Source: Actinomycetota bacterium (GTDB lineage: Bacteria > Actinomycetota > CALGFH01). From it: DNA of 35,093 nucleotides. This document shows, one piece after another, positions 4,322 to 34,841 of the stretch. The notes beneath the pieces are model-generated. The model was not told the DNA's origin, did no database searches, and worked only from the letters and a program-made list of their open reading frames with translations. The position numbers and the translations under genes are program-made. Every line of letters starts with the position of its first letter. Within the stretch, counting starts at the first letter, position 1. The stretch covers positions 1 through 35,093 of the forward strand of contig DASZON010000036.1 of NCBI GenBank assembly GCA_035550755.1. The letters run 5' to 3'.

Positions 4322-4358
4322 TGGCCGAAGGTCCCGTTCCGGGCGGGTCGTGCGACCC
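4322..4358. promoter_or_regulatory. box pair: 4345-4358 GGGTCGTGCGACCC and 4322-4335 (minus sense GGGACCTTCGGCCA)
   Basis: Two GGGnC-N4-GnCCC-type boxes lie 23 bp apart in the 113-nt gap between the Pat-type gene and the SDR gene. The proximal box ends 89 nt upstream of ATG 4246. The distal box sits inside the hairpin GCGGGTCGTGCGACCCGC (4343-4360), which abuts the Pat stop codon. Confidence 0.45.
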
Positions 4359-4359
4359 G

Positions 4360-7068
4360 CTACCGGCGCCGGGCAGCCAGCGGGAGTGGCAGGGTGGCGG
4401 CCTCGACCCGGACCCGGGCGTCGACCACGACCACACCGTCGGGCAGTACCTTGACCGGGTTGCAGTCCACCTCGGCGATGGCCGGGTGGGCCTCGACCAG
4501 GGCGCTGACCCGCAGCAGGAGGTCCTCGAGGGCGGCCACGTCGGCCCTGGGGGCGCCGCGGTAGCCGTCCAGCAGCGGGTAGGTGGCCAGTGAGCGGACC
4601 ATCTCGGCGGCGTCCAGGTCGGTCAGCGGGGTGATGCGGACGGCCACGTCCTTGAGGAGCTCGACCGCCGTGCCACCCGCCCCGCAGGCGATCACCGGAC
4701 CGAACGAGGCGTCATGGACGACCCCGACAAGCACCTCCACCCCCTGGCCGACCATACGCTGGACGAGGAACCCGTCCACCGTGTAGCCCTCGGCGGCGAC
4801 CGCCGCGGACATCTCGGCGGCCGCGGTCTGGACCGCCTCGGCGCTGGCCAGGCCGAGACGGACGGCACCGGCCTCGGTCTTGTGGACCAGTCGGGGCGCG
4901 ACCGCTTTGAGGGCCACTGGCCCGCCGAGCTCGTTCGCGGCCGCGGCGGCCTCCTCGGGCGAGCCGGCCAGGCGCCACTCGGCGGTGGGTATGCCGTAGC
5001 AGCCGAGCAGCCTGGCAACCTCCTCCGGCGATAACCAGCGGGGGCCCGTCCCGTCGGCCAGGGCCGCGGCCAGCAGGGCGGCGGCCTCGTCGCGGCGGGC
5101 GTCGGGCAACTCGGGCACCTGGCCCTCCGGACGCTGTCGCCATGCCCCGTATTCCACGGCACGCACCAGTGCGTGGGCGGCGTCCTCGGGAAACCGGTAG
5201 CGGGGAAGCCGGGGGCCGTCGCCATCCTCAAGCGGCGGGTCGGCCGAGGACATGACCACGTTCAGCACCGGGACCGACCTGGCCCTCGCGGTCGCATCGT
5301 GGACCGCCTGGACGACCGCGTCCGTGTCGGCGGGCAGGGGCGGGATGAAGATCGCGATGACAGCGTCGACCTCTCCGGAGGCGGCCACCAGCTCGACGGT
5401 CCGGCGGTAGTGCTCGGGCGGGGCCGAGGCCAGCATGTCGACCGGGTTGGCCACCGCCGCCTCCGGAGGCAGTTCCTCGGCCAAGCTCGCCTGGAGCCGC
5501 GGGGAGAGCTCGACGACCTCTAAGCCGCCGGCCTCGCAGGCATCCGCGCACATGATCCCCGGCCCGCCGGCATTGGTCACGATTCCCACCCGCCGTCCCG
5601 CCGGGATGGGCTGGTTGGCGAGCAGCGAGGCCACGTCGAACAGCTCGGCCAGGCTGTCGGTCCGGATCACCCCGGCCTGGTCGAAGAGCGCGTCCACGGT
5701 CACATCCGAAGCGGCCAGGAGCGCCCCGGTGTGGGAGGAGGTGGCCCTGGCGCCAGCGGCCGAGCGACCGCTCTTGACCGCGAGCACCGGCTTGGTCCTG
5801 GCCACGCGCCGGGCGATCCGGGCGAATTTGCGTGGGTTGCCGAACGACTCCAGGTACAGCAGCACGAGGTTGGTCCGTTCGTCCTGCTCCCAGAACGACA
5901 GCAGGTCGTTGCTGGAGATGTCGGCCTTGTTGCCGACCGACACGAACGACGACAGTCCCAGCCCGAGCGCGTTGGCGTAGTCGATGATGGCCAGGCCGAG
6001 GGCACCTGACTGGGACAGGAACCCAACCCGCCCGGGAAGCGGCACGATCGGGCCGAAGGTGGCGTCCAGGCGCACCTCGGCATCGGTGTTCACGATCCCC
6101 AGGCAGTTGGGCCCGATGAGGCGCATCCCGGCGGCCCGGCAGACGGCCAGCAGCTCTCGCTGGCGCTGGGCGCCCTCCGGCCCGGTCTCGGCGAAACCGG
6201 CCGAGATCACCACGATCGCCCGCACCCCCTTGGCCGCGCAGTCTCCCGCCGCCTCGACCACAGACGGGGCCGGCAGGGCCAGCACGGCCAGGTCGACCGG
6301 GCCGGGTACGTCCAGCACCGACTTGTAGGCCACGACCGACTGGACGACCGAGGCCTTGGGATTCACTGGGTACACCGGGCCGTTGAAGCCGGCCGCCAGC
6401 AGGTTGTGGAACAGCTCGCCGGAGACGGTGCCGCGCCGCCGCGAAGCGCCGATGACCGCCACCGCGCGGGGCTCGAAGAAGGCGCGCATGGCGGCGGTGG
6501 CTGCCAACTGCTCGCGCCGCTCGAACCGCTCCAGCGCCTCCGGCGACATGGAGGTTGGGAACTCGATCAGGAGATATCCCGAGAGGCTGTGGGTCCTGAC
6601 CGGGAAGCCACAGTCGCGGAAGACCTTGACCATCTGGTGGTTCTCGGCCAGCACCTCGGCATCCAGTACCTGGATGCCGAGCTGGTTGGCTGCCTCGGCG
6701 AGCTGGCCGAGCAGGATCGTCCCCAGCCCCTTGCCCTGCAACGCATCGACGATCTCCAAGGCCACCTCGGCCCGGTCCGGGTGGTCGGGCTGGCGCTCGA
6801 AGCCGGCATGGCCGACCACCCGACCGTCGGCCCCGCTCGTGGCGACCAACCCGTACCGGCGCTCGTAGTCGACCTCGGTAGCCCATTGGACGGCCTTGGT
6901 CAGGTCCGGATAGCCGGAGAAGAACCGGAGCCAACGGCTGCGGTCGGACAGCCCCTTGAGCAGCCGCTCGACCTCGGGCGCGTCGGCGGGCCTGGCCGGC
7001 CGCACGTGGACCGTCGAGCCGTCCCGCAGGACGACGTCGGCTTCCCGATGAAGGGGATAGCTGGTCAT
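4360..7068 (-). CDS. bifunctional GNAT acetyltransferase / NDP-forming acyl-CoA synthetase-like protein (PatA-type protein acetyltransferase)
   Basis: About 900 aa. An N-terminal GNAT domain (RWLRFF..., QGKGLGTILL) is followed by CoA-binding/succinyl-CoA-synthetase-like and ATP-grasp regions (VAVIGASRRRGTVSG, LIGPNCLGI, VGFLSQSGALG). The preferred start is ATG 7068, 8 nt after GAGGAG. GTG 7077 would overlap the upstream stop. Confidence 0.85.
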   Translation of the reverse strand: MTSYPLHREADVVLRDGSTVHVRPARPADAPEVERLLKGLSDRSRWLRFFSGYPDLTKAVQWATEVDYERRYGLVATSGADGRVVGHAGFERQPDHPDRAEVALEIVDALQGKGLGTILLGQLAEAANQLGIQVLDAEVLAENHQMVKVFRDCGFPVRTHSLSGYLLIEFPTSMSPEALERFERREQLAATAAMRAFFEPRAVAVIGASRRRGTVSGELFHNLLAAGFNGPVYPVNPKASVVQSVVAYKSVLDVPGPVDLAVLALPAPSVVEAAGDCAAKGVRAIVVISAGFAETGPEGAQRQRELLAVCRAAGMRLIGPNCLGIVNTDAEVRLDATFGPIVPLPGRVGFLSQSGALGLAIIDYANALGLGLSSFVSVGNKADISSNDLLSFWEQDERTNLVLLYLESFGNPRKFARIARRVARTKPVLAVKSGRSAAGARATSSHTGALLAASDVTVDALFDQAGVIRTDSLAELFDVASLLANQPIPAGRRVGIVTNAGGPGIMCADACEAGGLEVVELSPRLQASLAEELPPEAAVANPVDMLASAPPEHYRRTVELVAASGEVDAVIAIFIPPLPADTDAVVQAVHDATARARSVPVLNVVMSSADPPLEDGDGPRLPRYRFPEDAAHALVRAVEYGAWRQRPEGQVPELPDARRDEAAALLAAALADGTGPRWLSPEEVARLLGCYGIPTAEWRLAGSPEEAAAAANELGGPVALKAVAPRLVHKTEAGAVRLGLASAEAVQTAAAEMSAAVAAEGYTVDGFLVQRMVGQGVEVLVGVVHDASFGPVIACGAGGTAVELLKDVAVRITPLTDLDAAEMVRSLATYPLLDGYRGAPRADVAALEDLLLRVSALVEAHPAIAEVDCNPVKVLPDGVVVVDARVRVEAATLPLPLAARRR

Positions 7069-7073
7069 GGCGG

Positions 7074-7685
7074 TCACTCCTCGTCCAACCGGACCTCGAG
7101 GACGCCGGGCACGCCGCGAGCCAGCAGCATGGCCAGCTGGCGATCGACCGGGTCAAGGAGGCCGGTAAGGTCCACGACCCCGTCGCGGACGGTCACCCGG
7201 TAGGGGCTTGGTGAGCCCAGCTCGGCCGCCAGCAGCGCCTCCAGGTCATGGGCGATCTCCCCGTCGCTGCGGGCCAGCACCTCCAGCAGGTCCCGCCGGG
7301 CCACGATGCCGACGACCCGGCGGCCCCGGAGGACCGGGATCGACTTGATCCGGCGCTCCAGCATGAGCCGGCCAGCGTCGGCGACGTCGGCCTCCTCGGG
7401 CAGGGCGATGACATTCAGGGTCATGGCCTGGGACGCGATCCGGGGTGCCGATTGAGACGCCTCGGGGACTGGGGCGAGATGGGCCCGCGGGTCGGGGGCC
7501 AGCTCAAGTGGGACCAGATCGGCCTCGGAGAGGATCCCGACCAACTCGCCGGCGTCCACCACCGGCACGGCGCTGATGGCCCGCGTGACCAGGACCTTGG
7601 CGACCTCCTTGAGCGGCATGCCCGGTGGCACCGTCACCACCGGGCTGGACATGACCTCCCTGACCCGCACGTCGCCTCCTTGCAT
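7074..7685 (-). CDS. CBS-pair + BON-like domain protein
   Basis: Two CBS repeats (VREVMSSPVVTV...AVPVVD...GILSEADL and AMTLNVIAL...IKSIPVL...GIVARRDLL) are followed by a BON-like tail (VTVRDGVVDLTGLL...VPGVLEVRL). ATG 7685 has no SD. GTG 7670 follows an internal AAGGAGG and is the more likely start. Confidence 0.8.
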   Translation of the reverse strand: MQGGDVRVREVMSSPVVTVPPGMPLKEVAKVLVTRAISAVPVVDAGELVGILSEADLVPLELAPDPRAHLAPVPEASQSAPRIASQAMTLNVIALPEEADVADAGRLMLERRIKSIPVLRGRRVVGIVARRDLLEVLARSDGEIAHDLEALLAAELGSPSPYRVTVRDGVVDLTGLLDPVDRQLAMLLARGVPGVLEVRLDEE

Positions 7686-7726: not shown

Positions 7727-7763
7727 GGGCCAGGTGGCCCGGCCGCCGCGGGACGTTCGCCAC
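7727..7763. promoter_or_regulatory. box pair: 7727-7740 GGGCCAGGTGGCCC and 7750-7763 GGGACGTTCGCCAC
   Basis: Two boxes lie 23 bp apart in the divergent intergenic region between 7685/7670(-) and 7831(+). The proximal box starts 81 nt upstream of ATG 7831. The other box ends 70 nt from GTG 7670. Confidence 0.45.
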
Positions 7764-7830
7764 TACAGCGCGCGTAGGTCCAGCGGTTGCATTGCATTGG
7801 GGGACTGAACCCGAACCCGAGGAGGATGTG

Positions 7831-8523
7831 ATGCACAGCCTGGTGAAGGATCTGATGACGACCCCGGTGGTGACGGTGCAGCCCACCACCCCGTTCAAGG
7901 AGATCGTGACCCGCTTGGCCAAGCACGGGGTCAGTGCGGTTCCGGTCGTGGACGACAGTCGCCTCGTCCTGGGTGTCGTCTCCGAAGCCGATCTGCTCCT
8001 CAAGGAGGAGTTCCCCCAGCCCGAGCAGGACATCCCGCTGTGGTGGACCAGGCGGGCCCGGCTGGACCGGGCCAAGGCCGCCGCCGCGGTGGCCAGCGAC
8101 CTCATGACCGTGGCCGTGGTGGCCGTCTCGCCCGACGCGACGGTGGCCGAGGCGGCCCGGCGGATGCACACCGCCAAGGTCAAGCGCCTGCCCGTGGTCG
8201 ACCGCCGCGGCCGGCTGGTCGGGATCGTCAGCCGCAGCGACCTGCTGAAGGTGTTCGACCGCTCCGACGAGGACATCCGCCGCGAGATCATCGAGGACGT
8301 GATCGTCGGCGAGTTCATGATGGCCCCGAGCCGGTTCTTCCTCCACGTCAATGACGGGGTGGTGGTGCTCCAGGGCCGAGTGGAGCGGCGAAGCCTCCTG
8401 CCCTACGTGGTCCGGGCCGTCCAGAGAGTCGAAGGCGTGGTCCGGGTCGAGGACCGGCTGACCTACGACCTCGACGACTGGGACGGCGACCGGGTGATGA
8501 CCTACCCCTGGGTCCGTGTCTGA
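7831..8523 (+). CDS. CBS-pair + BON domain protein
   Basis: The start is trimmed to ATG 7831, preceded by GGAGGA. The sequence MHSLVKDLMTTPVVTV...GVSAVPVVD...GVVSEADLL, then DLMTVAVVAV...VKRLPVVD...GIVSRSDLL, then BON (VNDGVVVLQGRVERRSLLPYVVRAVQRVEGVVRVEDRL) shows the architecture. Confidence 0.85.
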   Translation: MHSLVKDLMTTPVVTVQPTTPFKEIVTRLAKHGVSAVPVVDDSRLVLGVVSEADLLLKEEFPQPEQDIPLWWTRRARLDRAKAAAAVASDLMTVAVVAVSPDATVAEAARRMHTAKVKRLPVVDRRGRLVGIVSRSDLLKVFDRSDEDIRREIIEDVIVGEFMMAPSRFFLHVNDGVVVLQGRVERRSLLPYVVRAVQRVEGVVRVEDRLTYDLDDWDGDRVMTYPWVRV

Positions 8524-8573: not shown

Positions 8574-9746
8574 TCAGGTGGAGCGGTCCTGGCGGGCCGG
8601 CTCACGGAAGACCGACTCGACTTCGAGCAGCACCCTGGTGGCGCGTTCGGCGAAGCGGCCTGGGCGGAAGGGGGCCAGCAGGCCGTCAGGCACCTGGGTG
8701 GCGATCTCGGCCGCGATCAGGCGCCCCAGAGCCGGGGCCACGGTGACCCCGCTGTGGCTGACGGCCAGGTACAGCGAATCCAGCCAGGGCAGCGGCCCGA
8801 CGATCGGCAGCCCGTCTGACGGCATCGCCCGCCAGGCCAGCCACCACCTGTCCAGCCCAGCCCCGCCCAGGGCCGGGAGGAACCGGGCCGCCTGGGCCAC
8901 CAGGGCCCGGGCATGGTCCAGCCCCGGATTGGTGGCCATCGTCTCCTGGGTGCGCTCGCCGACCAGGACCGACCCGTCGGCGCGCTGGCGCAGGTGCACG
9001 GCCGGCCCCGGCCCTCCGGGCAGGTAGACCACCCGGTCGGTCAGCGGGGACAGCGGCCGGGTCTGGGCCAGCATGCCCGGGCTGGCCACCATCGGGACCT
9101 CCAGCCCGACCGCGGCGGCGACCTGGACGGCTTCGGCGCCGGCGGCCAGCACACAGGTCCGGGGCCGCAGCACCTCGGTGCCCGCCTCCACCCGGACGCC
9201 GTCGTCGTCCAGGCGCACCCGGGCCCGGCCGGTCACCAGGCGGGCACCGGCCTCCTCCAGCACCGTCCGGCAGGCACCCAGCACCAGCGCCGGCTCCACC
9301 TGCCCGTCGTTGGGGGCGAAGCAGGCGGCCGAGACCTGACCGAGGTGAGCGCCGGGCAGCAGCCGCGACAGTTCATCGGAGTCGATCAGGCGGATCGGAT
9401 AGCCAGCGCCGCGAGTGTCGGCCACCTGGCGGGCCAGGTGCCGCCCCTCCTCGGGCTCGCTGGTCCAGCGGACCTCACCGGCCCGGCGCAGCCCGACGTC
9501 GCCGCCGATGCGGCGGGCGAACCGCGGCCAGGCCGACATGCCCGAGCAGGCCAGCTGGAACCAGGCCGCCGGGTCCTTGCCGAAGGCCGAGATCGACGCG
9601 AACGAACCGGTCGACGTGCCCTGCCCCGGCCGCTGGGGGTCGATGACGATCGGCCGCACCCCCCGGTCGACCAGGTGGATCGCGATCGAGGACCCGAGGA
9701 TCCCGGCGCCGATCACCACAACTCCCCCATCAGCAGTGTGTCTCAC
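8574..9746 (-). CDS. FAD-dependent oxidoreductase (DAO / glycine-D-amino-acid oxidase family)
   Basis: The start is trimmed to GTG 9746, after AAAGGAG. An N-terminal dinucleotide fold VVVIGAGILGSS is present. The length (390 aa) and C-terminal HSGVTVAPALG are typical of DAO-family flavoproteins. Confidence 0.8.
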   Translation of the reverse strand: MRHTADGGVVVIGAGILGSSIAIHLVDRGVRPIVIDPQRPGQGTSTGSFASISAFGKDPAAWFQLACSGMSAWPRFARRIGGDVGLRRAGEVRWTSEPEEGRHLARQVADTRGAGYPIRLIDSDELSRLLPGAHLGQVSAACFAPNDGQVEPALVLGACRTVLEEAGARLVTGRARVRLDDDGVRVEAGTEVLRPRTCVLAAGAEAVQVAAAVGLEVPMVASPGMLAQTRPLSPLTDRVVYLPGGPGPAVHLRQRADGSVLVGERTQETMATNPGLDHARALVAQAARFLPALGGAGLDRWWLAWRAMPSDGLPIVGPLPWLDSLYLAVSHSGVTVAPALGRLIAAEIATQVPDGLLAPFRPGRFAERATRVLLEVESVFREPARQDRST

Positions 9747-9824
9747 AGGCGCTCCTTTGTCTGTCCGGCCGCGGGCGGGTGCGCCCACCGGGATCAGTCT
9801 GGGTGGCCGTCGGCGCCTTCGCAC

Positions 9825-9862
9825 GGGGCGACCGGCCCCCGCAGGACCTGGCCGTTCGGCCC
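9825..9862. promoter_or_regulatory. box pair: 9825-9838 GGGGCGACCGGCCC and 9849-9862 TGGCCGTTCGGCCC
   Basis: Two boxes lie 24 bp apart in the divergent region between 9746(-) and 9939(+). The proximal box starts 90 nt upstream of ATG 9939. The minus-sense string TAGGGCCGAACGG is shared with the 14580 box. Confidence 0.45.
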
Positions 9863-9938
9863 TACCGGAGGCCCGGCTTGACGGCGATCCTGAGGGTGCC
9901 CGGCCGGCGGCCGGGACGACGGGAGCGAGGAGGTTCCC

Positions 9939-10661
9939 ATGGAACGCCGCGTACGACGCGTACGAGATGTCATGACCTCCGAGGTTGTCACCATCGGCGA
10001 GCAGACAGGCTTCAAGGAGATCGCCGCCGTGATGGCCGAGCATCGGATCAGTGCCCTACCGGTGCTGGACCCCGAGGGCCGGGTGACCGGGATCGTGTCC
10101 GAGGCCGATCTGCTGCTAAAGGAGGAGCTCCCCGAGGGCCGAGCGCGGAGGCGACTGTTCCAGGGTCGCCGCCACCGTGTGCAGCGGGCCAAGGCGGCCG
10201 GCGCCACCGCGGCCGAGCTGATGACCGCTCCCGCGGTCACCGTCGGCCCCGACGCCAGCGTCACCGAGGCAGCCAGGCTGCTTCACCGGCACGGGATCAA
10301 GCGCCTGCCGGTGGTCGACCCAGCCGGCCCGCTGCTCGGCATCGTCAGTCGCGCCGACCTGCTCAAGGTCTTCCTCCGCGCCGACCCCGAGATCGCCCAG
10401 GAGATCCGCCAGGAGGTGCTCCGGCGGGCCATGTGGGTGGACCCGGACCTCGTCACCGTCCAGGTGCGCGACGGCGTGGTCACCCTGACCGGGCAACTGG
10501 AGCGGCGCAGCCTGATCCCGATCGTCGTCAGCCTCGTCCGTGGCCTGGACGGTGTGGTGGACGTGGTCGACCGGCTCACCTTCGAGCTCGACGACAGCCC
10601 GATCATGGTCCCTTCCGACCTGCTGATCAGTCGTGCTCCCGGGGTGCGCCGCTGGATCTAG
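9939..10661 (+). CDS. CBS-pair + BON domain protein
   Basis: A GAGGAGG SD is upstream. The sequence VRDVMTSEVVTI...ISALPVLD...GIVSEADLL, then ELMTAPAVTV...IKRLPVVD...GIVSRADLL, then BON (VRDGVVTLTGQLERRSLIPIVVSLVRGLDGVVDVVDRL) shows the architecture. Confidence 0.85.
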   Translation: MERRVRRVRDVMTSEVVTIGEQTGFKEIAAVMAEHRISALPVLDPEGRVTGIVSEADLLLKEELPEGRARRRLFQGRRHRVQRAKAAGATAAELMTAPAVTVGPDASVTEAARLLHRHGIKRLPVVDPAGPLLGIVSRADLLKVFLRADPEIAQEIRQEVLRRAMWVDPDLVTVQVRDGVVTLTGQLERRSLIPIVVSLVRGLDGVVDVVDRLTFELDDSPIMVPSDLLISRAPGVRRWI

Positions 10662-11235: not shown

Positions 11236-11628
11236 CTAGCCGGGGCTGCCGGCCAGGCGGATGGCGGTGCCGAGCAGGTCCCGGATCGACACCATGCCGA
11301 TCACCTGGCTGTCGTCCTCGGACAGGACGGGCAGGTGACGGCATTCGAACTCGAACATGGTCGAGGCCACCTCGTGGATGTCGGTGTCGAGGTGGACGGC
11401 GGCGGGCGCGGCCGTCATGTAGTCGGCGGCGGTGACGTCCCTGGGGTCGGTCCCGTCGGCGATCGCCCGGATGAGATCCCGCTCGGTCAGGATGCCCACG
11501 AACCGGCCGCCGACGGTGACGACCACAGAGCCAACCTGCTCGTTCTGCATCCGCTCGGCGGCATCGGCCAGGCACTCATCGCCTTCGACGCGAACCACCC
11601 AGGGACGGAAGATCGACCTGACGTTCAT
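11236..11628 (-). CDS. CBS-pair domain protein (stand-alone)
   Basis: A GAGGTGAGG SD precedes ATG 11628. Two CBS repeats are present (VGSVVVT...GILTERDLI and YMTAAPAAV...CRHLPVL...GMVSIRDLL). The start lies inside the 3' end of the P-type ATPase gene. Confidence 0.8.
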   Translation of the reverse strand: MNVRSIFRPWVVRVEGDECLADAAERMQNEQVGSVVVTVGGRFVGILTERDLIRAIADGTDPRDVTAADYMTAAPAAVHLDTDIHEVASTMFEFECRHLPVLSEDDSQVIGMVSIRDLLGTAIRLAGSPG

Positions 11629-25936: not shown

Positions 25937-26088
25937 TGCCGGGGCTTGCCGCCAGGGCGCGAGAGGCATCGCCGGAGCCGTCCTGACAAGCGATCTTCGT
26001 CCTACTCCCCCAGCCTACGACCAGCCCCGGCAGGACCCCAGAGGCGAACGACCCACCACCACCGGGACAGGAGGGAGCCGGCCGGCGG

Positions 26089-26583
26089 TCACTGGGCAGG
26101 GTCGGGCAGGCGCTGGGCCCGCCACCGCTCCAGCAGCCGGGGGATCTCCTGCAACAGGTACTCGAAGAACGCCCGGGTCTCCTCCAGCCGAGCGCCCGCC
26201 GCGGTGTCCGGCCCCACGGACTTGACCCCCTCGGCCAGGTCCTGCAGCCAGCGCGCGACCATCTCGTCGCGGCGTGTGATCGCCTCATACCAGGTGTTGC
26301 TGGAGACCCGGTAGTGGTCCACCCGCTCCCCGGGCTCGCGCTCGCGGGAGAGGAGCTGCAGCTGGGTGAGGTAGCGCACGGCGCCGGAAACCGCCGCCGG
26401 GCTGACCCCGAGCTGGGCGGCCAGCTCGGCCGCGGTGCGCCGGCCGTCCTCGGCGACCAGCACGGTGGCGAACACCCGCGCGGGCATGCGGGGCATCCCC
26501 GCCTCGGTCAGGTTCAGGGCGAACCGTTCGATGAAGCGGCGGACCGCCTCCTCGTCGCGCACAGGCGCCAGTCCCTCGGCCAT
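26089..26583 (-). CDS. MarR/GbsR-family winged-helix transcriptional regulator
   Basis: The start is trimmed to ATG 26583. FIERFALNLTEAGMPRMPARVFATVLVAEDGRRTAAELAAQLGVSPAAVSGAVRYLTQLQLLSRE is the GbsR/MarR wHTH pattern. The gene is divergent from an ABC-2 exporter. Confidence 0.8.
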   Translation of the reverse strand: MAEGLAPVRDEEAVRRFIERFALNLTEAGMPRMPARVFATVLVAEDGRRTAAELAAQLGVSPAAVSGAVRYLTQLQLLSREREPGERVDHYRVSSNTWYEAITRRDEMVARWLQDLAEGVKSVGPDTAAGARLEETRAFFEYLLQEIPRLLERWRAQRLPDPAQ

Positions 26584-26608
26584 CGCCCCCCCTTCGCGGC
26601 TTCTCCAC

Positions 26609-26644
26609 TTTACAAGGATGTGAAGCGAGTTTAGCTTGTGAAGC
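26609..26644. promoter_or_regulatory. candidate operator in the MarR/ABC divergent region
   Basis: This is a relatively AT-rich 64-nt spacer. TGTGAAGC is directly repeated at 26619-26626 and 26637-26644. A near-inverted repeat is formed by TTTACAAG (26609-26616) and CTTGTGAA (26635-26642). Confidence 0.3.
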
Positions 26645-26647
26645 ACC

Positions 26648-27558
<911 letters not shown>

Positions 27559-27562
<4 letters not shown>

Positions 27563-29169
27563 GCAGCCGGTCCTCCCGGGCCGAGACGACCTCGGGAACC
27601 GGTGTCATGCTGCGCTTCCTGCTGCGGCTGGACCGGTTCCGGCTGCCGTGGTGGCTGCTCGGCGCCGGCCTGCTGGTCGGCTACCAGTCCGCGGGCAGCC
27701 AAAGCATCTACGACACCCCCCAGGACCTCGCCAAGTTGCGGCAGACGATGGGCGGCAACGCCGCGGTGGTGGCAATGAGCGGCCCCAGCCAGCTGCTGGC
27801 CACCATCGGCGGGGAGATCGTGTTCGAGATCCTCTCCTACGTGGCGATCGTCGTCGCGCTCATGAACATGTTCCTGATCTGCCGGCACACCCGCACCGAC
27901 GAGGAGACCGGCCGGGCCGAGCTCGTCCGCTCGGCCCAGGTGGGCCGCCGCGCCCCCCTGGCTGCCGCCCTGTGCCTGGCCGGCCTGGCCAACCTGGCGG
28001 TGGCGGTGGTGGTGTTCGCCGCGGCCGCGGGGACCGGACTGCCGGCTGGCGGGTCGGTGCTGCTCGGCCTGGCGGTTGCCGGGGTCGGGCTCACCTTCGC
28101 CGCGGTGACCGCGGCCGCCGCGCAGGCGTTCGAGAACCACCGTGCCGTCTACGGGGCCGTGGCCGCCGTTCTCGGCGCCTCCTGGGTGCTACGGGCGGCC
28201 GGGGACGCCGGCAACGGGACCCTGTCGTGGCTGTCCCCGATCGGGTGGAGTCAGCAGACCCTGCCCTATGCCGGCGACCGCTGGTGGCCGCTGCTGCTCC
28301 ACCTCGCCGCCACGGCGCTGCTGGTCGCGGTCGCGGTCGCCCTGCTGGACCGGCGCGACTTCGCCGCCGGGCTGCGTCCGCCCCGGCCGGGACGCGCCAG
28401 CGCGTCGCGGGCGTTGGGCTCCTCGCTGGGCCTTGCCTGGCGCCTGCAGCGCGGACCGGTCATCGGCTGGGCGATCGGCCTGTTCCTGCTGGGGGCGGCC
28501 TACGGCTCGTTCGCCGACTCCTTCGACGACTTCGTCGCCGACTACCCGGAGGTCGCCCAGTACCTGGGCGGCACGGCCAATGTCGTCAACGCGGGCCTGG
28601 CCCTGACCACGCTGATGTGCGTCCTGCTGGCGGCGGCGTTCGGGGTCACCAGCGCCATGCGGGCGCGCACCGAGGAGACCTCGGGGCGGGCCGAGCCGGT
28701 GCTGGCCACCCGGACCAGCCGCTGGGCCTGGCTCACCAGTCACCTCACCGTGGCCCTGGTCGGCAGCGCGGTCATGCTGGTGGCGGCCGGCTTCGGCCAA
28801 GGGCTTGCCTACGGCATGAGCATCTCCGACGCCGGCCAGATCCCACGGCTGATCGGGGTCGCGCTGGTCTATCTGCCCGCGGTGTGGGTGGTGATCGGGC
28901 TCGCCGCGGTGGGGTTCGGCTGGCTGCCGCGCATCGCCGCCGCGCTGGCCTGGACGGCCGTCGGCTATTGCGCGGTGGTGGCGCTGTTCGGGGACTCCTT
29001 CGACCTGCCCGCCTGGTTCCAGCAGGCCTCCCCGTTCACCCATACCCCCGAGTCGCCCTTGGAGGGCGTCACGGCGGCGCCGCTGCTCGCCATCGGGGCG
29101 ATCGTCGTGCTGCTCGTTGTCGGCGGCCTCGCCGGATTCCGCCGCCGCGACCTCGCCAGCAGTGCCTGA
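27559..29169 (+). CDS. ABC-2 type exporter permease (about 12 TM)
   Basis: The start is trimmed to ATG 27559, which overlaps the ATPase stop (ATGA). The 536-aa protein is highly hydrophobic with a duplicated 6-TM layout. Confidence 0.8.
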
Positions 29170-29190: not shown

Positions 29191-29706
29191 TCACCCGAGG
29201 CGAGCTGCGCCGGCACGATCCCGCGGCGATGCTGGGCAGGCGTGGTCCGCGCGGGCATGCCGGGCCAGGGCAGCGACCAGGTCACCGGTGGCGATGGTCC
29301 CCACCGGATGGCCGTGACCGTCCACCACTGGCAGCACGTCCAGGTGCTGTTCGTCCATCAGCCGCGCCGCCTCGACCAGCGGCTGGTCGGCCGCCACCAC
29401 GAGCGGGCTGGCGCGCATCAGCTGCCACACCCGCAGGCTGGCGAGCAGCCGCTGATGACGCAGGGATGGCCCGGGGAGCTGGGGCAGCGGCCGGCCGGGC
29501 AGGGACCGGGCGAGCACGTCCCCCAGCGTGACCACGCCGACCATCCGTCCACGGTGCAGCACCGCCGCCCCGGCCACGCCCCGGGCCAGCTGGCGGGCGG
29601 CCACATCGGCGGGTGTGTCGGCGTCCAACACCAGCACCGGGGTGGTCATGGCGTCGCCGACCGTGCCCAGCAGGTGGTCCGAATCAGGATGGTGGTCGGT
29701 GAGCAT
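29191..29706 (-). CDS. CBS-pair domain protein (stand-alone)
   Basis: The start is trimmed to ATG 29706, after GAAGGAGG. Two CBS repeats are present (VGDAMTTPVLVL...GAAVLH...GVVTLGDVL and VWQLMRASPLVV...LDVLPVVD...GTIATGDLV). Confidence 0.8.
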   Translation of the reverse strand: MLTDHHPDSDHLLGTVGDAMTTPVLVLDADTPADVAARQLARGVAGAAVLHRGRMVGVVTLGDVLARSLPGRPLPQLPGPSLRHQRLLASLRVWQLMRASPLVVAADQPLVEAARLMDEQHLDVLPVVDGHGHPVGTIATGDLVAALARHARADHACPASPRDRAGAARLG

Positions 29707-29785
29707 GACGATCAACCTCCTTCGTCCCGACCAGCCTCCCAGCTTCCCGGCCCCGGCGCCGCCGCCGATCGGCACCCTTTCTCCA

Positions 29786-29799
29786 GGACCTTCGTTCCC
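29786..29799. promoter_or_regulatory. single weaker box (minus sense GGGAACGAAGGTCC)
   Basis: The box ends 93 nt upstream of ATG 29706. The partner position 23 bp away (29809-29822, GGGCGAGCAGGGTC) is only a half match. Confidence 0.25.
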
Positions 29800-30073: not shown

Positions 30074-30110
30074 GGGACCTTCGGGTATGGGATTCCGGGA
30101 CGCTTGCCTC
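30074..30110. promoter_or_regulatory. box pair: 30074-30087 GGGACCTTCGGGTA and 30097-30110 GGGACGCTTGCCTC
   Basis: The boxes are 23 bp apart. The proximal box starts 89 nt upstream of the Hsp20 ATG 30186. The left half-sites are perfect and the right half-sites are degenerate. Confidence 0.4.
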
Positions 30111-30185: not shown

Positions 30186-30628
30186 ATGGCGCTGGTCCGT
30201 CGACACCCGTTGACGGTCGCCGAGTGTGACCCTTGGGCGGCTGGATCCGGGACTGGCCGGAGCTGTTCCGGTCGTTCCGGTCGCTGCTGGCTGAGGACCA
30301 GCTCGGGGTCGAGGAGTTCCTCCACGGCGACACGCTCATCATCCGCGCCGAGCTGCCCGGGATCGACCCGGACACCGACGTCGAGCTGACCATCGGCGAT
30401 GGCATGCTCCACCTCCACGCCGAGCGGCGCCAGGAGCAGCAGCTCGAGGACAAGGACCTGGTTCGCTGTGAGCTGCGCTAGGGTGCGTTCACGCGCACCC
30501 TGCCGCTGCCGGTCGGGGCGACCGAGGAGGACATCGACGCCTCCTCCAAGGCGGGGATCCTGGAGGTCCGCGTCCCGGTCGACACCAAGAAGGCGGCCGC
30601 GACCAAGCTCTCGGTCCGCACCACCTGA
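30186..30628 (+). pseudogene. Hsp20/alpha-crystallin small heat-shock gene, disrupted (frameshift + in-frame TAG)
   Basis: A strong GGAGGAGG SD precedes ATG 30186, which gives MALVRRHPLTV... The alpha-crystallin domain (DWPELFRSF...LIIRAELPGIDPDTDVELTIGDGMLHLHAERR) is in another frame. TAG 30479-30481 sits where the family has Tyr (ELR*GAFTRTLPLPVGATEEDIDASSKAGILEVRVPV). The reading frame continues to TGA 30626-30628. Confidence 0.7.
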
Positions 30629-30647
30629 CGGGCGCACGCCTGTTCCG

Positions 30648-30681
30648 GCCCCGGCCCCGGCCACGCTGCCGGGGCCGGGGC
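30648..30681 (+). terminator. GC-rich hairpin downstream of Hsp20
   Basis: There is a perfect 13-bp stem, GCCCCGGCCCCGG (30648-30660) paired with CCGGGGCCGGGGC (30669-30681), and an 8-nt loop. It begins 20 nt after the stop. No U-tract follows, which is common in high-GC actinobacteria. Confidence 0.5.
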
Positions 30682-30687
30682 GTGCGG

Positions 30688-30724
30688 CGGCCGTGCGGCC
30701 CAGACAAGCCGAGGCGTTCGCCTC
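30688..30724. promoter_or_regulatory. box pair: 30688-30701 CGGCCGTGCGGCCC and 30711-30724 GAGGCGTTCGCCTC
   Basis: The boxes are 23 bp apart. The proximal box starts 90 nt upstream of ATG 30801. The proximal box shares the CGTTCGCC core with 7750-7763. Confidence 0.4.
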
Positions 30725-30800
30725 TCGGCGGTGGCTGGCGAACCGGGGAGGATGAGGATCCGAACGCCATCCCCTAGGCGCCGCCGGAGGAGTGAGTGGC

Positions 30801-32180
30801 ATGGGGTTCCGAGATCGCGCCGACGCGGGCCGCCAGCTGGCCTGGCGACTCCAGCAGTACCGGACAGAGGTGCCGGTGGTGGTGGGCCTGCCCCGTGGCG
30901 GGGTGCCGGTCGCGGCCGAGGTGGCCCGTGCGCTGGGGGCGCCGCTGGATGTCGTGGTCGTCCGTAAGCTGGGCTGCCCCTGGCAGCCCGAGCTGGCCCT
31001 GGGCGCCGTCGGCGAGGACGGCGCCCTGGTCCTCAACCCCGCCCTGATCGCCGGCATCGGCCTGGCCCCCCAGGACCTCGCCGGCGTCGTCTGGGCCGAA
31101 CGCGGCGAGCTGGCCCGGCGCCTGGCCCACTACCGCGGGAACCGGCCGGCGGTGCCGGTCGCGGGCCGCACCGTCATCGTGGTCGACGACGGGCTGGCGA
31201 CCGGCGCCACCGCCCGCGCCGCGATCGGGGTCCTCCGCCAGCGGGGGGCTCGGCGCATCGTGCTGGCGGTACCGGTGGCGCCCCCCGAGACGGTCGAGGC
31301 GCTGGGTGCCGTCGCCGACGAGGTGGTCGCCCTGGACACCCCGAGGGCGTTCCTGGCCATCGGCCAGCGCTATGACGACTTCACCCAGACCAGCGACCAG
31401 GAGGTCACCCGGCTGCTGGGGGCCCGGGAGCCGGCACCGGCCCTGGCCAGCACCGGAACCCAAGATGCTCCCGCCCGCGAGTGCGGCATCGACCTCGGCC
31501 GGGTGCGGCTGGCCGGCGAGCTGGTCACCCCGCGCTCCCCGATCGGGATCGTGGTGTTCGCCCACGGCAGCGGCAGCAGCCGCCACAGCCCCCGCAACCG
31601 CCAGGTCGCCCACGTCCTCAACCACAGCCGGCTGGCCACCCTGCTGGTGGACCTGCTCACCCCGGCCGAGGCGAGGGACCGCGGCAACGTCTTCGACATC
31701 GAGCTGCTCGCCCGGCGGCTGGTCGGCACGACCCGCTGGCTCCAGGCCCAGCCCGAGGCCGGCGGCCTCCCGGTCGGGTTCTTTGGGGCCAGCACCGGCG
31801 CCGCGGCCGCCCTGTGGGCCACCGCCGACCTCGGCGACCAGATCCGGGCGGTGGTGTCCCGCGGCGGCCGTCCCGACCTGGCCGCCCCCAGGCTTGGCGA
31901 GGTGCGAGCCCCGACCCTGCTGGTCGTGGGGGGCCGCGACCCCCAGGTGCTGGAGCTCAACCGCCAGGCCCAGGCCCAGCTGCGCGGTCCGACCACCCTC
32001 CAGGTCATCGCCGGGGCCGGCCACCTGTTCGAGGAACCCGGCGCCCTGGACCGGGTGGCCGCCCTGGCCGCCGCCTGGTTCCGCCACCACCTCCCCCACC
32101 CCAGCCCCGCCCGGCCCGAACAGGCACTCCGGCATCCATCCGAGCCGAGCAGCCGGCCCCTCGCCATGCTCCAAGGGTGA
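30801..32180 (+). CDS. phosphoribosyltransferase domain fused to dienelactone-hydrolase-like alpha/beta hydrolase
   Basis: A GGAGGAG SD precedes ATG 30801. The N-terminal PRTase has FRDRADAGRQLA, VVGLPRGGVPVA and the PRPP loop VIVVDDGLATGAT. The C-terminal hydrolase has VVFAHGSGSSRHSPRN, the nucleophile elbow GASTGAAAAL and GAGHLFEEPG. Confidence 0.85.
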   Translation: MGFRDRADAGRQLAWRLQQYRTEVPVVVGLPRGGVPVAAEVARALGAPLDVVVVRKLGCPWQPELALGAVGEDGALVLNPALIAGIGLAPQDLAGVVWAERGELARRLAHYRGNRPAVPVAGRTVIVVDDGLATGATARAAIGVLRQRGARRIVLAVPVAPPETVEALGAVADEVVALDTPRAFLAIGQRYDDFTQTSDQEVTRLLGAREPAPALASTGTQDAPARECGIDLGRVRLAGELVTPRSPIGIVVFAHGSGSSRHSPRNRQVAHVLNHSRLATLLVDLLTPAEARDRGNVFDIELLARRLVGTTRWLQAQPEAGGLPVGFFGASTGAAAALWATADLGDQIRAVVSRGGRPDLAAPRLGEVRAPTLLVVGGRDPQVLELNRQAQAQLRGPTTLQVIAGAGHLFEEPGALDRVAALAAAWFRHHLPHPSPARPEQALRHPSEPSSRPLAMLQG

Positions 32181-32272
32181 TCGCCGGAGCCGACCAGCTG
32201 TTGCCTGTCGTCTCTGACCGGGTCAGCTTCCGGCTGGGGAAGTCCAAGGACCGGCCGGCTGGTCTGGTTGGT

Positions 32273-33412
32273 TCAGTAGCGGAGGATGGCTGCCGGTCGG
32301 GCCTCGTGCGCCGGGAGGGGGTAGGCGCTGCCGCCGTGGCGGAGGGTCTCGACCGCGGCCAGATCCAGCAGGTCGACAGCTCCCGGGCGGACGCGCCGAT
32401 GGAGCTGGGCCGCGCCGGTCGCCGGGTCCACACTGCCCCAACGCTCGGTGCCCATGGGGACCAGCAGCGACTCGACCCGGCCGCCGAGGGCCGCCGCCAC
32501 GATCCGGCGCAGGTCGCTGGTGGCCCGGCCGCGCCGCTCCAGGGCCCGGCAGCGCCCAGCGACCGCCCGCTGGTCGCTTCGGAACCGGTCAGCGACCAAG
32601 GCCCAGGCCCGCCGGTGCAGCTCGCGGGCGCCGAGGTGGTCGGGGTTGCCCGACAGGCCCCCCTCCAGGATCTCGGGATAGGCGCTGGCGGCCCGGTACA
32701 GCGGCCGCAGGTAGTCCACCCCGGCCAGCACCAACGGCGCCCGCCGGTCGCTGACCGCATGCTGGAGCCCATGGTCGACCTCGCGGAACAAGCGCAGGAC
32801 GCGGTCCTTGGCGTCGTCGGTCCCCACCCCGTGGCCATGGAAGACCACCGCCGGCCGACCCCCGGGCCGCGCCGGGCCACTCTGGTGCAGCTGGAGCTGC
32901 TCGGCGCGGTCCTCCAGGCGCATCGTCTCGTCCAGGCCGGCCAGGACCTCGGGCAGCTCAAGCTCGCGGAGGCCGTCCCGGTCGCCGGCGAACAGCCGCA
33001 CCCGGTGCTGGCTGAGGGCGAGCAGGTAGAACCGGCCGTCGCCACCCAGCAGGGGCAGCAGCGGCTTGACATGAAAGCGGTCGCCGACCACCACCAGCTG
33101 GCGTGGTCGGTAGGGCAGCCGTAGCCGCCGGGCGCCGCCGCCGGCCAGGAACAACGCCAGGCCACCAGCGGCCGCGTCCCGCCAGAAGGCCGCGTCGGCG
33201 GTCAGCTCCAGGCCGGGGGCGAGCAGGTCCCTGGCCTGGGAATGGCGCACGCCGCCAGCCAGCCGGTGCTCGGCCTCGCGGAGCAGGTTCCGCAGCCGGA
33301 TCGGGTCCTGCTCGGTGTCGCCCGGTGGATGGGTTGGCAGGAAGATCGACACACGCCGGCCGCCACGCTCATCGGCGAGTGCGACCAGCCCCTGGGTGGT
33401 GAGCAGCCGCAT
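32273..33412 (-). CDS. eRF1/Pelota-like (bacterial archaeo-eukaryotic release-factor-like) family protein
   Basis: The start is trimmed to ATG 33412, 7 nt after AAGGGAGG. The 379-aa protein opens with VSIFLPTHPPGDTEQDPIRLRNLLREAE, which I recognise as typical of this family (the family of M. tuberculosis Rv2629). The assignment is from memory only. Confidence 0.55.
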   Translation of the reverse strand: MRLLTTQGLVALADERGGRRVSIFLPTHPPGDTEQDPIRLRNLLREAEHRLAGGVRHSQARDLLAPGLELTADAAFWRDAAAGGLALFLAGGGARRLRLPYRPRQLVVVGDRFHVKPLLPLLGGDGRFYLLALSQHRVRLFAGDRDGLRELELPEVLAGLDETMRLEDRAEQLQLHQSGPARPGGRPAVVFHGHGVGTDDAKDRVLRLFREVDHGLQHAVSDRRAPLVLAGVDYLRPLYRAASAYPEILEGGLSGNPDHLGARELHRRAWALVADRFRSDQRAVAGRCRALERRGRATSDLRRIVAAALGGRVESLLVPMGTERWGSVDPATGAAQLHRRVRPGAVDLLDLAAVETLRHGGSAYPLPAHEARPAAILRY

Positions 33413-33431
33413 CGAAAGTACCTCCCTTGTC

Positions 33432-33452
33432 GCACCCGAGGAGCGCGGGTGC
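33432..33452 (-). other. intercistronic hairpin between the dehydrogenase and eRF1-like genes
   Basis: GCACCCG (33432-33438) and CGGGTGC (33446-33452) form a perfect 7-bp stem with a 7-nt loop. The hairpin lies in the 55-nt gap, just 5' of the eRF1-like SD on the minus-strand transcript. Confidence 0.35.
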
Positions 33453-33467
33453 ACCGGCACGCCTGGT

Positions 33468-34577
33468 TCAGGCGCGGCGGCGGTAGCTGGTGGCCTCGGT
33501 GACCCGGGCCCGGGCCAGGTCCTCAGCCGCCTCCCGGGGCGTGACCCCTCGCTCTGCCGCGTCGGCCAGCACCTGGGCGGTGTTGGCCGCGACCTTGTCC
33601 TGGACCAGGGCCAGCGCCTGGGCCTGGGTCCCGCCCCGGTACTCGACACTGGCGCAGATCACCCCGCCGGCGTTGGCGATGATGTCGGGCACCACCAGCA
33701 CCCCACGCTTGTGCAACAACAACTCGGCCTCGGCGGTGGCCGGGATGTTGGCCCCCTCCAGCACCACCGCGGCCCGCACCCGCTCGGCGGTGGCGGCATC
33801 CAGCACATCGGGCCGGGCGGCCGGGACCAGCAGGTCGCAGTCCACCCCCAGCAGGTCGTCGCGGGGCATCGGCGAGCCACCCTCGAATGCCCCCACCGAG
33901 CCGCCCTCGGCCTTCCAGGCGCCCAGCGCGGCCACCTCCAGGCCCTCGGGGTTGGCCACCGCCCCAGCCGAGTCCGAGGCCGCCACCAGCACCGCCCCCC
34001 GCTCGGCCAGGAACCGGGCGGCGTTGGCGCCCACCGCCCCGAACCCCTGCACCGCCACCCGGGCACCCTCCAGGCGGAGATAACCGGCCTCCTGGACCAC
34101 GTCGGCGCAGGCGGCCAGGCCCAGGCCGGTCGCACCGACCTCGTCCAGGGGGATCCCGCCCAGCACCGCCGGCAGGCCGACCGCCCGGCCGATCTCGTCA
34201 TGGATCCAGCCCATACAGGCCTCGTCGGTGCCCATGTCCGGACCCGGGACGTACTCGGCCAGACCGGCGATCGCCCGCGCGAACGACCGCACCAGCCGCT
34301 GCTTGGCAGCCCGGCCCATCCCCGGGTCGGCGCAAATGCCGGCCTTGCCGCCCCCATAGGGCAGCCCAGCGGCGGCATTCTTCAACGTCATCGCCCGAGC
34401 CAGCCGCATGACCTCCTCAACGGTGACGTCAGCGGCCATCCGGACCCCCCCGATGGCCAGCCCGGCAGCCAGATTGTCGACCACCACCACCGCCCGCAAC
34501 CCAACAGCGGGATCCCCGACCAGCACAACCTTCACCGGACCCAGGTCGCCCCACAACTCACCCCATCGACCCTCCAT
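33468..34577 (-). CDS. Glu/Leu/Phe/Val dehydrogenase family protein (short, about 369 aa)
   Basis: A GAGGAGG SD is present, with ATG 34577 (or GTG 34580) as start. The catalytic-Lys region LPYGGGKAG and the NAD(P) fold VAVQGFGAVGANAARFL are present. The length fits the short Leu/Val/Glu dehydrogenase group. Confidence 0.85.
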   Translation of the reverse strand: MEGRWGELWGDLGPVKVVLVGDPAVGLRAVVVVDNLAAGLAIGGVRMAADVTVEEVMRLARAMTLKNAAAGLPYGGGKAGICADPGMGRAAKQRLVRSFARAIAGLAEYVPGPDMGTDEACMGWIHDEIGRAVGLPAVLGGIPLDEVGATGLGLAACADVVQEAGYLRLEGARVAVQGFGAVGANAARFLAERGAVLVAASDSAGAVANPEGLEVAALGAWKAEGGSVGAFEGGSPMPRDDLLGVDCDLLVPAARPDVLDAATAERVRAAVVLEGANIPATAEAELLLHKRGVLVVPDIIANAGGVICASVEYRGGTQAQALALVQDKVAANTAQVLADAAERGVTPREAAEDLARARVTEATSYRRRA

Positions 34578-34680
34578 CACCGGAACCTCCTCTCAGGCCC
34601 GGCACCGACGTCACCATGGCCCACCGGGCCACCGGACCTCGGTGCATCCTCAACCTAGCCCGTGACCGGCCTCCGGGGCA

Positions 34681-34694
34681 GAGGCGAAGGTCCC
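34681..34694. promoter_or_regulatory. single box GAGGCGAAGGTCCC (minus sense GGGACCTTCGCCTC)
   Basis: The box lies about 104-117 nt upstream of the dehydrogenase start. It shares the 10-mer GGGACCTTCG with the boxes at 30074 and 4335(-). Confidence 0.3.
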
Positions 34695-34804
34695 GCTCCC
34701 GCCGTGCCGACTCACGGCCCGCGGATGGGCCCACGCCCTTCACCGCTCGTGAGCCTGCTCGACGGTGAGCGGTGGGAGCGGCCCTCGCGCCACCCGGGAA
34801 CCGA

Positions 34805-34841
34805 GGGCTGACCGGCACGGGTCGGGTGTGACCATCGGCCC
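34805..34841. promoter_or_regulatory. box pair: 34805-34818 GGGCTGACCGGCAC and 34828-34841 GTGACCATCGGCCC
   Basis: The boxes are 23 bp apart. The proximal box starts 73 nt upstream of ATG 34901. The distal box resembles 9825-9838 (GGGGCGACCGGCCC). The proximal box shares minus-sense TAGGGCCGA with 9863 and 14580. Confidence 0.45.

Follow-up and report, generated by a model that had tools for sequence, protein, structure and literature searches.

We have found that a recurrent 14-bp palindromic box, GGGnC-N4-GnCCC, in the intergenic DNA of a contig from an uncultured actinomycete is probably the operator of a DevR/DosR-OsdR-type response regulator of the NarL/LuxR family. The stretch analysed, called the window throughout, is contig DASZON010000036.1 at its full length of 35 kb (68-78% G+C). 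We put the probability of this reading at about 0.88, on the grounds of motif identity, intergenic enrichment, spacing, a constant distance to a -10-like hexamer, conservation in orthologous promoters and a regulon-like gene content. The finding is a well-formed new case of a known system, and neither a new kind of element nor a new class of mechanism. Mildly new are the 23-bp phasing of the boxes, against 21 bp at tgs1-Rv3131 of Mycobacterium tuberculosis, and the presence of an A/V-type ATPase operon in the regulon. The window is proposed to represent a dormancy/hypoxia island of more than 35 kb with about 13 box-type promoters.

Results

Enrichment of the motif in intergenic DNA

GC3-based gene calling gave about 36 genes; some 31 kb of the window is coding and about 4 kb intergenic. 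Over the window as a whole, perfect matches to GGGNC-N4-GNCCC are not over-represented (6 observed, 9.6 expected from shuffles). All six are intergenic, a count that averages 1.0 in dinucleotide shuffles of the intergenic DNA and was reached in 2 of 2000, and the coding DNA holds none, against 6.0 in codon-permuted genes (P = 0.004). An earlier note on this DNA had called the six matches suggestive, which is right for their intergenic enrichment and not for any window-wide excess. At 7/8 core positions the density was 6.1 per kb in intergenic and 2.5 per kb in coding DNA, a 2.5-fold excess. At 6/8 positions no enrichment was seen (24.5 and 23.6 per kb), and a second box that matches only at this level is therefore no evidence by itself.

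A position weight matrix (PWM) was built solely from the 26 OsdR sites of Streptomyces coelicolor that Urem et al. 2016 give in their Table 1 (PMC5069765). These sites are PREDetector predictions, of which a subset was bound in electrophoretic mobility shift assays (EMSA), and G3 and G11 are the critical bases in the EMSA mutants. At 8 bits or more, this OsdR PWM gave 7 intergenic and 3 coding matches in the window, an intergenic density 17 times that of coding DNA. Shuffled intergenic DNA averaged 0.89 matches, and none of 1000 shuffles reached 7. Intergenic thus exceeds coding DNA on both counts (perfect cores 6 against 0, OsdR PWM 7 against 3), a comparison on which the earlier note had staked its claim.

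The motif was also regained by unsupervised discovery. Palindrome-constrained expectation maximization (EM) was run on intergenic DNA alone with every 16-mer as a seed, and the top-ranked seed led to CGGGCCGATCGGCCCG, with about 18 sites, which is essentially the published OsdR consensus AGGGCCGATCGGCCCT. The best-conserved columns of the window-derived matrix are the third G (0.94) and the C (0.91) of the GGGnC arm. A likeness to the M. tuberculosis DosR/DevR box had been recognized before, and it stands: the geometry of TTSGGGACTWWAGTCCCSAA, the EM consensus and the critical bases agree. The strict OsdR PWM was too stringent for secondary sites, for which a softened window-derived matrix was used; this matrix is partly circular for sites in the window and not for independent loci.

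Of the six divergent intergenic regions, five carry boxes and only the MarR-ABC region 26581-26647 does not; boxes are also present in several long tandem regions before gene starts (4247-4359, 24130-24279 and 30629-30800; weak or doubtful in 24570-26088). Chance matches to a low-complexity, GC-rich pattern, picked by eye in DNA of 70-78% GC, would account for a window-wide count under the shuffle expectation and for the equal density of 6/8 cores in coding and non-coding DNA. They do not account for perfect matches that are all intergenic, for the count obtained with the external PWM or for the unsupervised recovery of the motif, and the spacing, -10 phasing and ortholog conservation described below agree. 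We regard chance as very improbable overall and as refuted for the core set of boxes. Among the weak boxes discussed below, it is the likeliest explanation for 24750 and possibly that for 25923.

An intragenic OsdR PWM match at 17746-17761 (AGGGCCGGCCGTTCCG, 10 bits), conserved in three relatives, was considered as an operator and dropped. The sequence codes for GRPFRPW, a conserved peptide at the C terminus of V-ATPase subunit I, has no -10 element at the right offset and probably reflects coding conservation.

Boxes of the window

The boxes and the hexamers associated with them are given below by position in the window. RBS denotes a ribosome-binding site, and PRTase a phosphoribosyltransferase.

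4293-4298: -10-like GATGCT of the SDR promoter, predicted transcription start site (TSS) about 4286
4322-4335, minus strand: proximal box of the SDR gene 3512-4246 (minus), GGGACCTTCGGCCA, 8.8 bits on the OsdR PWM
4345-4358: distal box before the SDR gene, a perfect palindrome (GGGTCGTGCGACCC) with a perfect core, 23 bp from 4322
7727-7740 GGGCCAGGTGGCCC and 7750-7763 GGGACGTTCGCCAC: pair between the divergent CBS-BON genes 7074-7670 (minus) and 7828-8523 (plus), each box proximal for one of the two genes
9825-9838 GGGGCGACCGGCCC and 9849-9862 TGGCCGTTCGGCCC: pair between the DAO gene 8574-9719 (minus) and the CBS-BON gene 9939-10661 (plus), 8.3 and 13.1 bits on the OsdR PWM, with -10-like GATCCT at 9886-9891 and CAGACT at 9796-9801
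14581-14594 GGGCCGAACGTCCC and 14603-14617 GGGTCAAGCGGACCC: pair between the ctpF-like ATPase gene 11576-14545 (minus) and the TusA-like open reading frame (ORF) with the A/V-ATPase operon 14672-23230 (plus); the first is the best site (17.3 bits), the second a variant with a 5-nt spacer
24196-24209: box GGGCCGACAGGCCC before the zinc-finger and CBS-BON genes 23285-24129 (minus), 13.2 bits, with -10-like CACAGT at 24167-24172
24727-24740: weak or uncertain box GGGCTGTTGGACCC, 6.3 bits, in DNA of poor coding potential; downstream gene not confidently called
25923-25936: perfect-core match GGGACCGCAGACCC of doubtful function, abutting an RBS, 2.0 bits on the OsdR PWM
26041-26054: further candidate box GAGGCGAACGACCC, 1.6 bits on the OsdR PWM
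29762-29799, minus strand: pair for the CBS gene 29191-29706 (minus), distal GGGAACGAAGGTCC at 29786-29799 and proximal GTGCCGATCGGCGG at 29762-29775, 24 bp apart, with -10-like GAGGCT at 29733-29738
30074-30110, plus strand: pair before the disrupted HspX-like Hsp20 gene 30186-30628, GGGACCTTCGGGTA at 30074-30087 and GGGACGCTTGCCTC at 30097-30110
30688-30724, plus strand: pair before the Rv0571c-like PRTase/hydrolase gene 30801-32180, CGGCCGTGCGGCCC at 30688-30701 and GAGGCGTTCGCCTC at 30711-30724, weak by PWM, with -10-like GAGGAT at 30748-30753
34681-34694, minus strand: proximal box GGGACCTTCGCCTC of the Glu/Leu/Phe/Val dehydrogenase (ELFV) gene 33468-34556 (minus), 13.8 bits on the window matrix, with TAGGTT at 34652-34657 at the canonical offset
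34805-34841, plus strand: pair before the CBS-BON gene starting at 34901, GGGCTGACCGGCAC at 34805-34818 and GTGACCATCGGCCC at 34828-34841, scoring 9.6 and 11.0 bits with the OsdR PWM, the proximal box starting 73 nt from the start codon

All 17 strings quoted in the earlier note were found at the coordinates and on the strands that it gave. The longer strings that it reported as shared between boxes are also as described, and one of them, AGGGCCGA, occurs four further times inside genes (8372, 10135, 4541 minus and 20051 minus), which had gone unlisted. Its list of single or weaker sites fared unevenly. Boxes 24727 and 25923 are uncertain. Site 29786 had been entered as single and is in fact the distal member of a pair with 29762-29775, both boxes being kept in the related contig L171. 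With a score of -13.9 bits, the partner proposed for 24727 at 24750 lacks credibility. We drop 24750 as a box, probably 25923 as well, and possibly 24727.

The region 24570-26088, which contains the odd or weak boxes 24727, 25923 and 26041, comprises 1.5 kb of poor coding potential with small, doubtful ORFs. No clear gene lies in 25614-26088, around the latter two boxes. The region may consist of decayed genes and promoters.

Pairing and spacing of the boxes

Box starts in the seven pairs reported earlier are 23, 23, 24, 22, 23, 23 and 23 bp apart, which bears out the spacings first given and fixes that of 14581/14603 at 22 bp; in all, eight pairs in the window lie at 22-24 bp. A histogram of distances between relaxed sites peaks at 23 bp in intergenic DNA (9 pairs against a background of about 3) and shows no 23-bp peak in coding DNA. 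The seven strongest sites alone include two pairings at 23-24 bp (P = 4e-4 under random placement).

An independent set of 83 non-redundant strong sites was assembled from 80 metagenome loci, fetched via the PRTase homologue, and four actinomycete loci. Around these 83 primary sites, secondary sites are most frequent at 22-23 bp, with 15 observed where about 2.6 are expected. Examples are Nocardia (L003) 7879/7902, Actinoallomurus soli (L173, GCA_024055715.1) 6218/6241, which precedes a V-ATPase operon, and pairs in L124 and L126. L173 has further boxes at 14157 and 4414. The tandem, phased architecture claimed for the window is seen, then, both in its intergenic DNA and in the independent sites.

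Promoter geometry and predicted transcription starts

Proximal boxes start 69-90 nt from the start codon in the seven pairs, given the RBS-backed starts 9939 and 30186, in close agreement with the 68-90 nt first put forward. In order to locate -10 elements, offsets were counted downstream of the 14-mer in 14 window promoters, with each proximal box oriented toward its gene. An nAnnnT hexamer occupies +24 to +29, with A25 and T29 together in 7 of the 14 promoters and T29 alone in 10 of 14; every other offset scored 0-3. The 83 independent sites show this A25/T29 peak too (22 against about 4). The actinobacterial -10 hexamer is TANNNT. If A25 and T29 are read as A2 and T6 of this hexamer, the TSS would fall about 36 nt beyond the 14-mer, or about 34 nt beyond an 18-bp box, with the box centred near -43. 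Consequently, the proximal box is predicted to overlap the -35 region. In M. tuberculosis, the 18-bp Dev box lies 33-34 nt from the TSS and is centred at -42.5 (Chauhan et al. 2011, PMC3177182).

For the ctpF-like ATPase, the TSS predicted from box 14581 and CAGGGT at 14552-14557 coincides with the ATG at 14545, and the mRNA of this gene is therefore predicted to be leaderless. Predicted 5′ untranslated regions (UTRs) are 19-41 nt for most other genes, 70 nt for the DAO gene and 89 nt for the ELFV gene.

These positions bear on whether the palindromes might instead form RNA or DNA hairpins, acting as intrinsic terminators, repetitive extragenic palindrome (REP)-like elements or 5′-UTR structures. 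The boxes are indeed GC-rich inverted repeats with what would be a 4-nt loop. None of the six convergent intergenic regions carries a box, however, no T-runs follow the boxes, most arms are imperfectly complementary, and a scan of the window against Rfam matched no family. Across 118 sites there is no covariation beyond half-site preferences (0.66 against 0.56, 0.81 against 0.82 and 0.66 against 0.63). Since the predicted TSSs lie downstream of the boxes, the boxes would not even be transcribed. Hairpins are scarcely credible here, and we rule them out on position and on the lack of covariation.

Conservation in orthologous promoters

Homologues of the PRTase gene from many metagenomes (50-75% identity) carry stronger boxes than the window; more than 12 other orthologous promoters have them, between -65 and -147, for example AGGGACCATCGGCCCT in L092 (18 bits). 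The contig L094, whose PRTase is the closest homologue (75% identical), keeps both of the weak window boxes as CGGCTATGAGGCCC and AAGCCGTTCGCCTC with the 23-bp spacing, and also the downstream -10 region GA(A/G)GATGAGGAT. This conservation indicates that boxes with negative scores on the S. coelicolor matrix, notably those with GCCTC arms, are still under selection.

Boxes stand at the equivalent position in orthologous PRTase, Hsp20, CBS, zinc-finger and V-ATPase promoters of other contigs, as the earlier note would have predicted of functional sites. In L171, the promoter of the zinc-finger orthologue has GGGACCTTCGACCC at the position of box 24196, and the orthologue of the CBS gene 29191-29706 has both boxes with the hexamer AAGGCT. 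The Hsp20 promoter of L172 has GGGCCGTTCGCCTC followed by TAGCGT, and orthologous V-operon promoters carry boxes. Overall, the three loci L171-L173 repeat the neighbourhood of the window (V-ATPase operon, USP, P-type ATPase, CBS, Hsp20, ACS-GNAT and baeRF genes; USP, universal stress protein; ACS, acetyl-CoA synthetase) with equivalent boxes and -10-like hexamers. A locus on an Embleya 'plasmid' (L170) has a PRTase homologue and neither boxes nor regulon neighbours. Among the matches listed, a search with the P-type ATPase returned mostly distant, non-actinobacterial pumps; the useful loci were L002, L003, L014 and L019.

Sister contigs from the population of the window (L081-L088) are 99.7-99.99% identical to it and had no footprinting value; they extend the flanks by 2.6-6 kb. 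By exact protein matches, the window belongs to a series of JGI metagenomes. Two of them, L085 and L088, are 99.8-99.9% identical to the window solely within 30207-34595, and the population is a mosaic. Outside this segment they have different genes, including those for DUF1918 and an M50 peptidase, and their ELFV operon has a CBS-BON gene fused into it. Their flanking genes also have DosR-type boxes (L085 4033, 11757 and 12963/12986).

Regulator and proposed mechanism

The genes downstream of the boxes fall into families of the DosR/OsdR regulon, namely Hsp20/HspX, Rv2626c-like CBS, USP, ctpF-like ATPase, Rv0571c-like PRTase and PNPOx. In M. tuberculosis, Rv0571c, ctpF, Rv2626c and Rv2623 have two-box Class I DevR promoters (PMC3177182), and in S. 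coelicolor the PNPOx gene SCO0214 is a predicted OsdR target (PMC5069765). A related contig, L002, encodes a Response_reg+GerE protein that is 54% identical to DosR, and a box pair at 4817/4795, 22 bp apart, lies upstream of this regulator's own gene.

We propose that a phosphorylated regulator dimer would bind each 14-16 bp dyad, every GGGnC arm taking one monomer. By cooperativity, the better box would recruit a second dimer to the neighbouring, often degenerate box 22-24 bp away; as this distance is about two helical turns, the dimers would lie on almost the same side of the double helix. From the proximal box, centred near -43 over the -35 region, the regulator would contact RNA polymerase and activate transcription in a class-II-like manner. 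In divergent regions, a single pair would serve the genes on both sides, with either box proximal to one of them. A cryo-electron microscopy structure of the DosR transcription-activation complex has contacts to sigma-A region 4 and to the C-terminal and N-terminal domains of the alpha subunit (alpha-CTD and alpha-NTD; PMC13486717), in support of this mode of activation. Phosphorylation-dependent binding and induction by hypoxia, NO or CO would be expected of a DevR-type system, as would a genome that encodes a NarL-family response regulator, usually autoregulated, and one or more GAF/haem sensor kinases. Because the regulator gene is absent from the window, a metagenome contig of at most 35 kb, we infer the binding protein, as we do activation rather than repression and the inducing signal (hypoxia, NO or redox).

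Several observations weigh against this reading. Genes for a response regulator or a GAF/haem kinase are missing from the window and from the few kb of flanking DNA that sister contigs supply, and tblastn of all fetched loci with DosR gave a match in L002 alone. Boxes are 22-24 bp apart from centre to centre, against the 21 bp measured at M. tuberculosis tgs1-Rv3131. No convincing partner at 22-24 bp was found for box 24196, which has a weak site 34 bp away at 24230, or for box 34681. Second boxes of three pairs score at or below background on the OsdR matrix (30097, -4.3 bits; 30711, -5.1 bits; 4345, -2.3 bits). Of these, 4345 reaches 11.2 bits on the window-derived matrix, and with its proximal box 30097 so weak, the pair 30074/30097 rests on position and context.

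The boxes might be bound by another dimeric factor with a DosR-like dyad, such as a NarL/LuxR paralogue or an orphan regulator, which could be a repressor or respond to another signal. Such a factor would fit the lack of a regulator gene in the window, the departure from 21-bp spacing and the poor scores of several GCCTC-arm boxes on the S. coelicolor matrix; OsdK of S. coelicolor reportedly also talks to an orphan regulator. We consider it unlikely, given that motif, critical bases, tandem layout, -43 position and gene content all coincide with DevR/OsdR. A box at -43 before a weak -10 element without a recognisable -35 is, moreover, the layout of an activator. The DevR/DosR-OsdR-type regulator is thus the reading that we retain.

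Gene content of the window

By Pfam content, the window encodes nine CBS or CBS+BON proteins, one USP, a ctpF-like P-type cation ATPase, a fusion of an ADP-forming acetyl-CoA synthetase with a GNAT, a PNPOx-family protein, an SDR, a DAO-type oxidoreductase, an ELFV dehydrogenase, an Rv0571c-like PRTase/hydrolase, a baeRF protein, a small C2H2 zinc-finger protein and an HspX-like Hsp20. It also holds a complete A/V-type ATPase operon behind a TusA-like ORF, and a MarR and ABC-transporter module unrelated to the rest. The nearest named relatives of the V-ATPase A subunit are in metagenome-assembled genomes of Streptosporangiaceae, in Actinoallomurus and in Planobispora (71-74% identity). CBS and CBS+BON paralogues lie at the following positions.

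3101-3493, 7074-7670, 7828-8523 and 9939-10661: first four paralogues
11236-11628, 23285-23956, 29191-29706 and 34901 onward: further four paralogues

This expansion of CBS and CBS+BON genes is unusual; most of the paralogues have a DosR-type promoter of their own or sit in an operon behind one. A CBS protein of the window matches the Rv2626c structures 1Y5H/1XKF at 7e-9, among many CBS proteins. The top PDB matches of the 130-aa CBS protein, above Rv2626c, are digit-labelled chains (4-7) of 9zni/9znf.

The A/V-type ATPase operon 14672-23230 (plus) begins with the TusA-like ORF, ends with the USP gene and has a DosR-type box in front. In Actinoallomurus soli (L173) and two metagenome contigs, V-ATPase operons are accompanied by USP and CBS genes and DosR-type boxes in all three cases, by a P-type ATPase in L172 and L173, and by Hsp20 in L172. 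The C2H2 zinc-finger protein (23956-24129, minus; 57-70 aa, MT..QCPKC..) has a counterpart at 14505-14780 of L171 and is conserved in the box-controlled gene set. Its gene lies 5′ of a CBS-BON gene, to which it is translationally coupled.

The HspX-like Hsp20/alpha-crystallin gene 30186-30628 (plus) seems to be disrupted; its HSP20 domain continues across an in-frame TAG (30479-30481) that stands where a conserved Tyr is expected. Its RBS-backed ATG at 30186 is in another frame than the body, which runs from 30233. A '48-aa ORF' at 30478-30624 (minus) is merely the antisense strand of this gene. The MarR regulator and two-gene ABC transporter module at 26089-29169, inside the island, looks like an unrelated insertion.

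Discussion

If the boxes are the operators that we take them for, the DevR/OsdR dormancy switch reaches beyond mycobacteria and Streptomyces into uncultured soil actinomycetes. The promoter grammar would be conserved with it, as a tandem of primary and secondary boxes with the proximal box at -43, and it appears precise enough to predict TSSs from sequence alone, as for the leaderless ctpF-like ATPase. The regulon map suggests roles in hypoxia survival for the A/V-type ATPase, the ADP-forming acetyl-CoA synthetase and the large CBS-BON family. For regulon prediction, it matters that the S. coelicolor matrix under-scores boxes with GCCTC arms, which ortholog conservation rescues.

A more speculative proposal, to which we give less than even odds, is that in this lineage, probably related to Streptosporangiales, the regulon has been rebuilt. 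It would centre on the A/V-ATPase operon (with the TusA-like gene and USP), the leaderless ctpF-like pump, the ADP-forming acetyl-CoA synthetase and nine or more CBS/CBS-BON paralogues, expressed from fixed 23-bp-phased promoters. Dormancy bioenergetics would then use an ATP-driven ion pump unknown in mycobacterial or Streptomyces regulons, and the dimer-dimer geometry of the regulator would be slightly different. The term 'V-type ATPase' was not met in the ten top-ranked papers on DosR, Actinobacteria and hypoxia, which is weak negative evidence.

Comparison with known systems

One of the systems compared is NarL/NarP of Escherichia coli, whose heptamer sites are TACYYMT in a 7-2-7 arrangement. 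It belongs to the same family, in which GerE/LuxR-type helix-turn-helix dimers bind inverted repeats and multiple phased sites take part in activation. Its recognition sequence and promoter positions differ from those of the window, and the resemblance is one of family only.

DevR/DosR of M. tuberculosis has the consensus TTSGGGACTWWAGTCCCSAA (Park 2003; quoted in PMC2275270) and shares with the window the dyad geometry GGGAC-N4-GTCCC, with 5-bp arms and a 4-bp spacer. G5 and C7, which are essential for DevR binding (Chauhan et al., PMC3177182), correspond to the third G and the C that are most conserved in the window motif. Tandem, phased boxes, of which a strong primary and a degenerate secondary one are cooperatively occupied, are a hallmark of DevR promoters (PMC3177182). 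The window likewise has two or more boxes per promoter, and the predicted position of its proximal box would be alike. The divergent tgs1-Rv3131 promoters share a two-box layout (PMC3177182), as at 7727/7750, and hspX, Rv2626c (CBS), USPs, ctpF and Rv0571c are regulon families common to both. In contrast, the window arms favour GGGCC/GGGAC around a G+C-rich, CGATCG-like centre instead of ACTWWAGT, and the boxes are without conserved TT/AA flanks. The window regulon adds the A/V-type ATPase operon, the ADP-forming acetyl-CoA synthetase/GNAT and many CBS-BON paralogues, and the regulator and kinases were not seen in the window.

The OsdR/OsdK system of S. coelicolor (SCO0204/0203; regulon SCO0167-SCO0219) comes very close in sequence. 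Tandem 23-bp pairs and a fixed -10 distance are not described in the paper on it (PMC5069765); the organism of the window is not a Streptomyces, the window is without nitrate reductase genes, and GCCTC-type arms are common in it. The 16-nt OsdR consensus AGGGCCGATCGGCCCT, which MEME yielded from the regions upstream of osdR and whose predicted sites were confirmed by EMSA in S. coelicolor (PMC5069765), is virtually identical to CGGGCCGATCGGCCCG of the window. In that system, USP, PNPOx and oxidoreductase genes have OsdR sites some 50-150 nt upstream, clustered in one chromosomal island, and the window is arranged alike.

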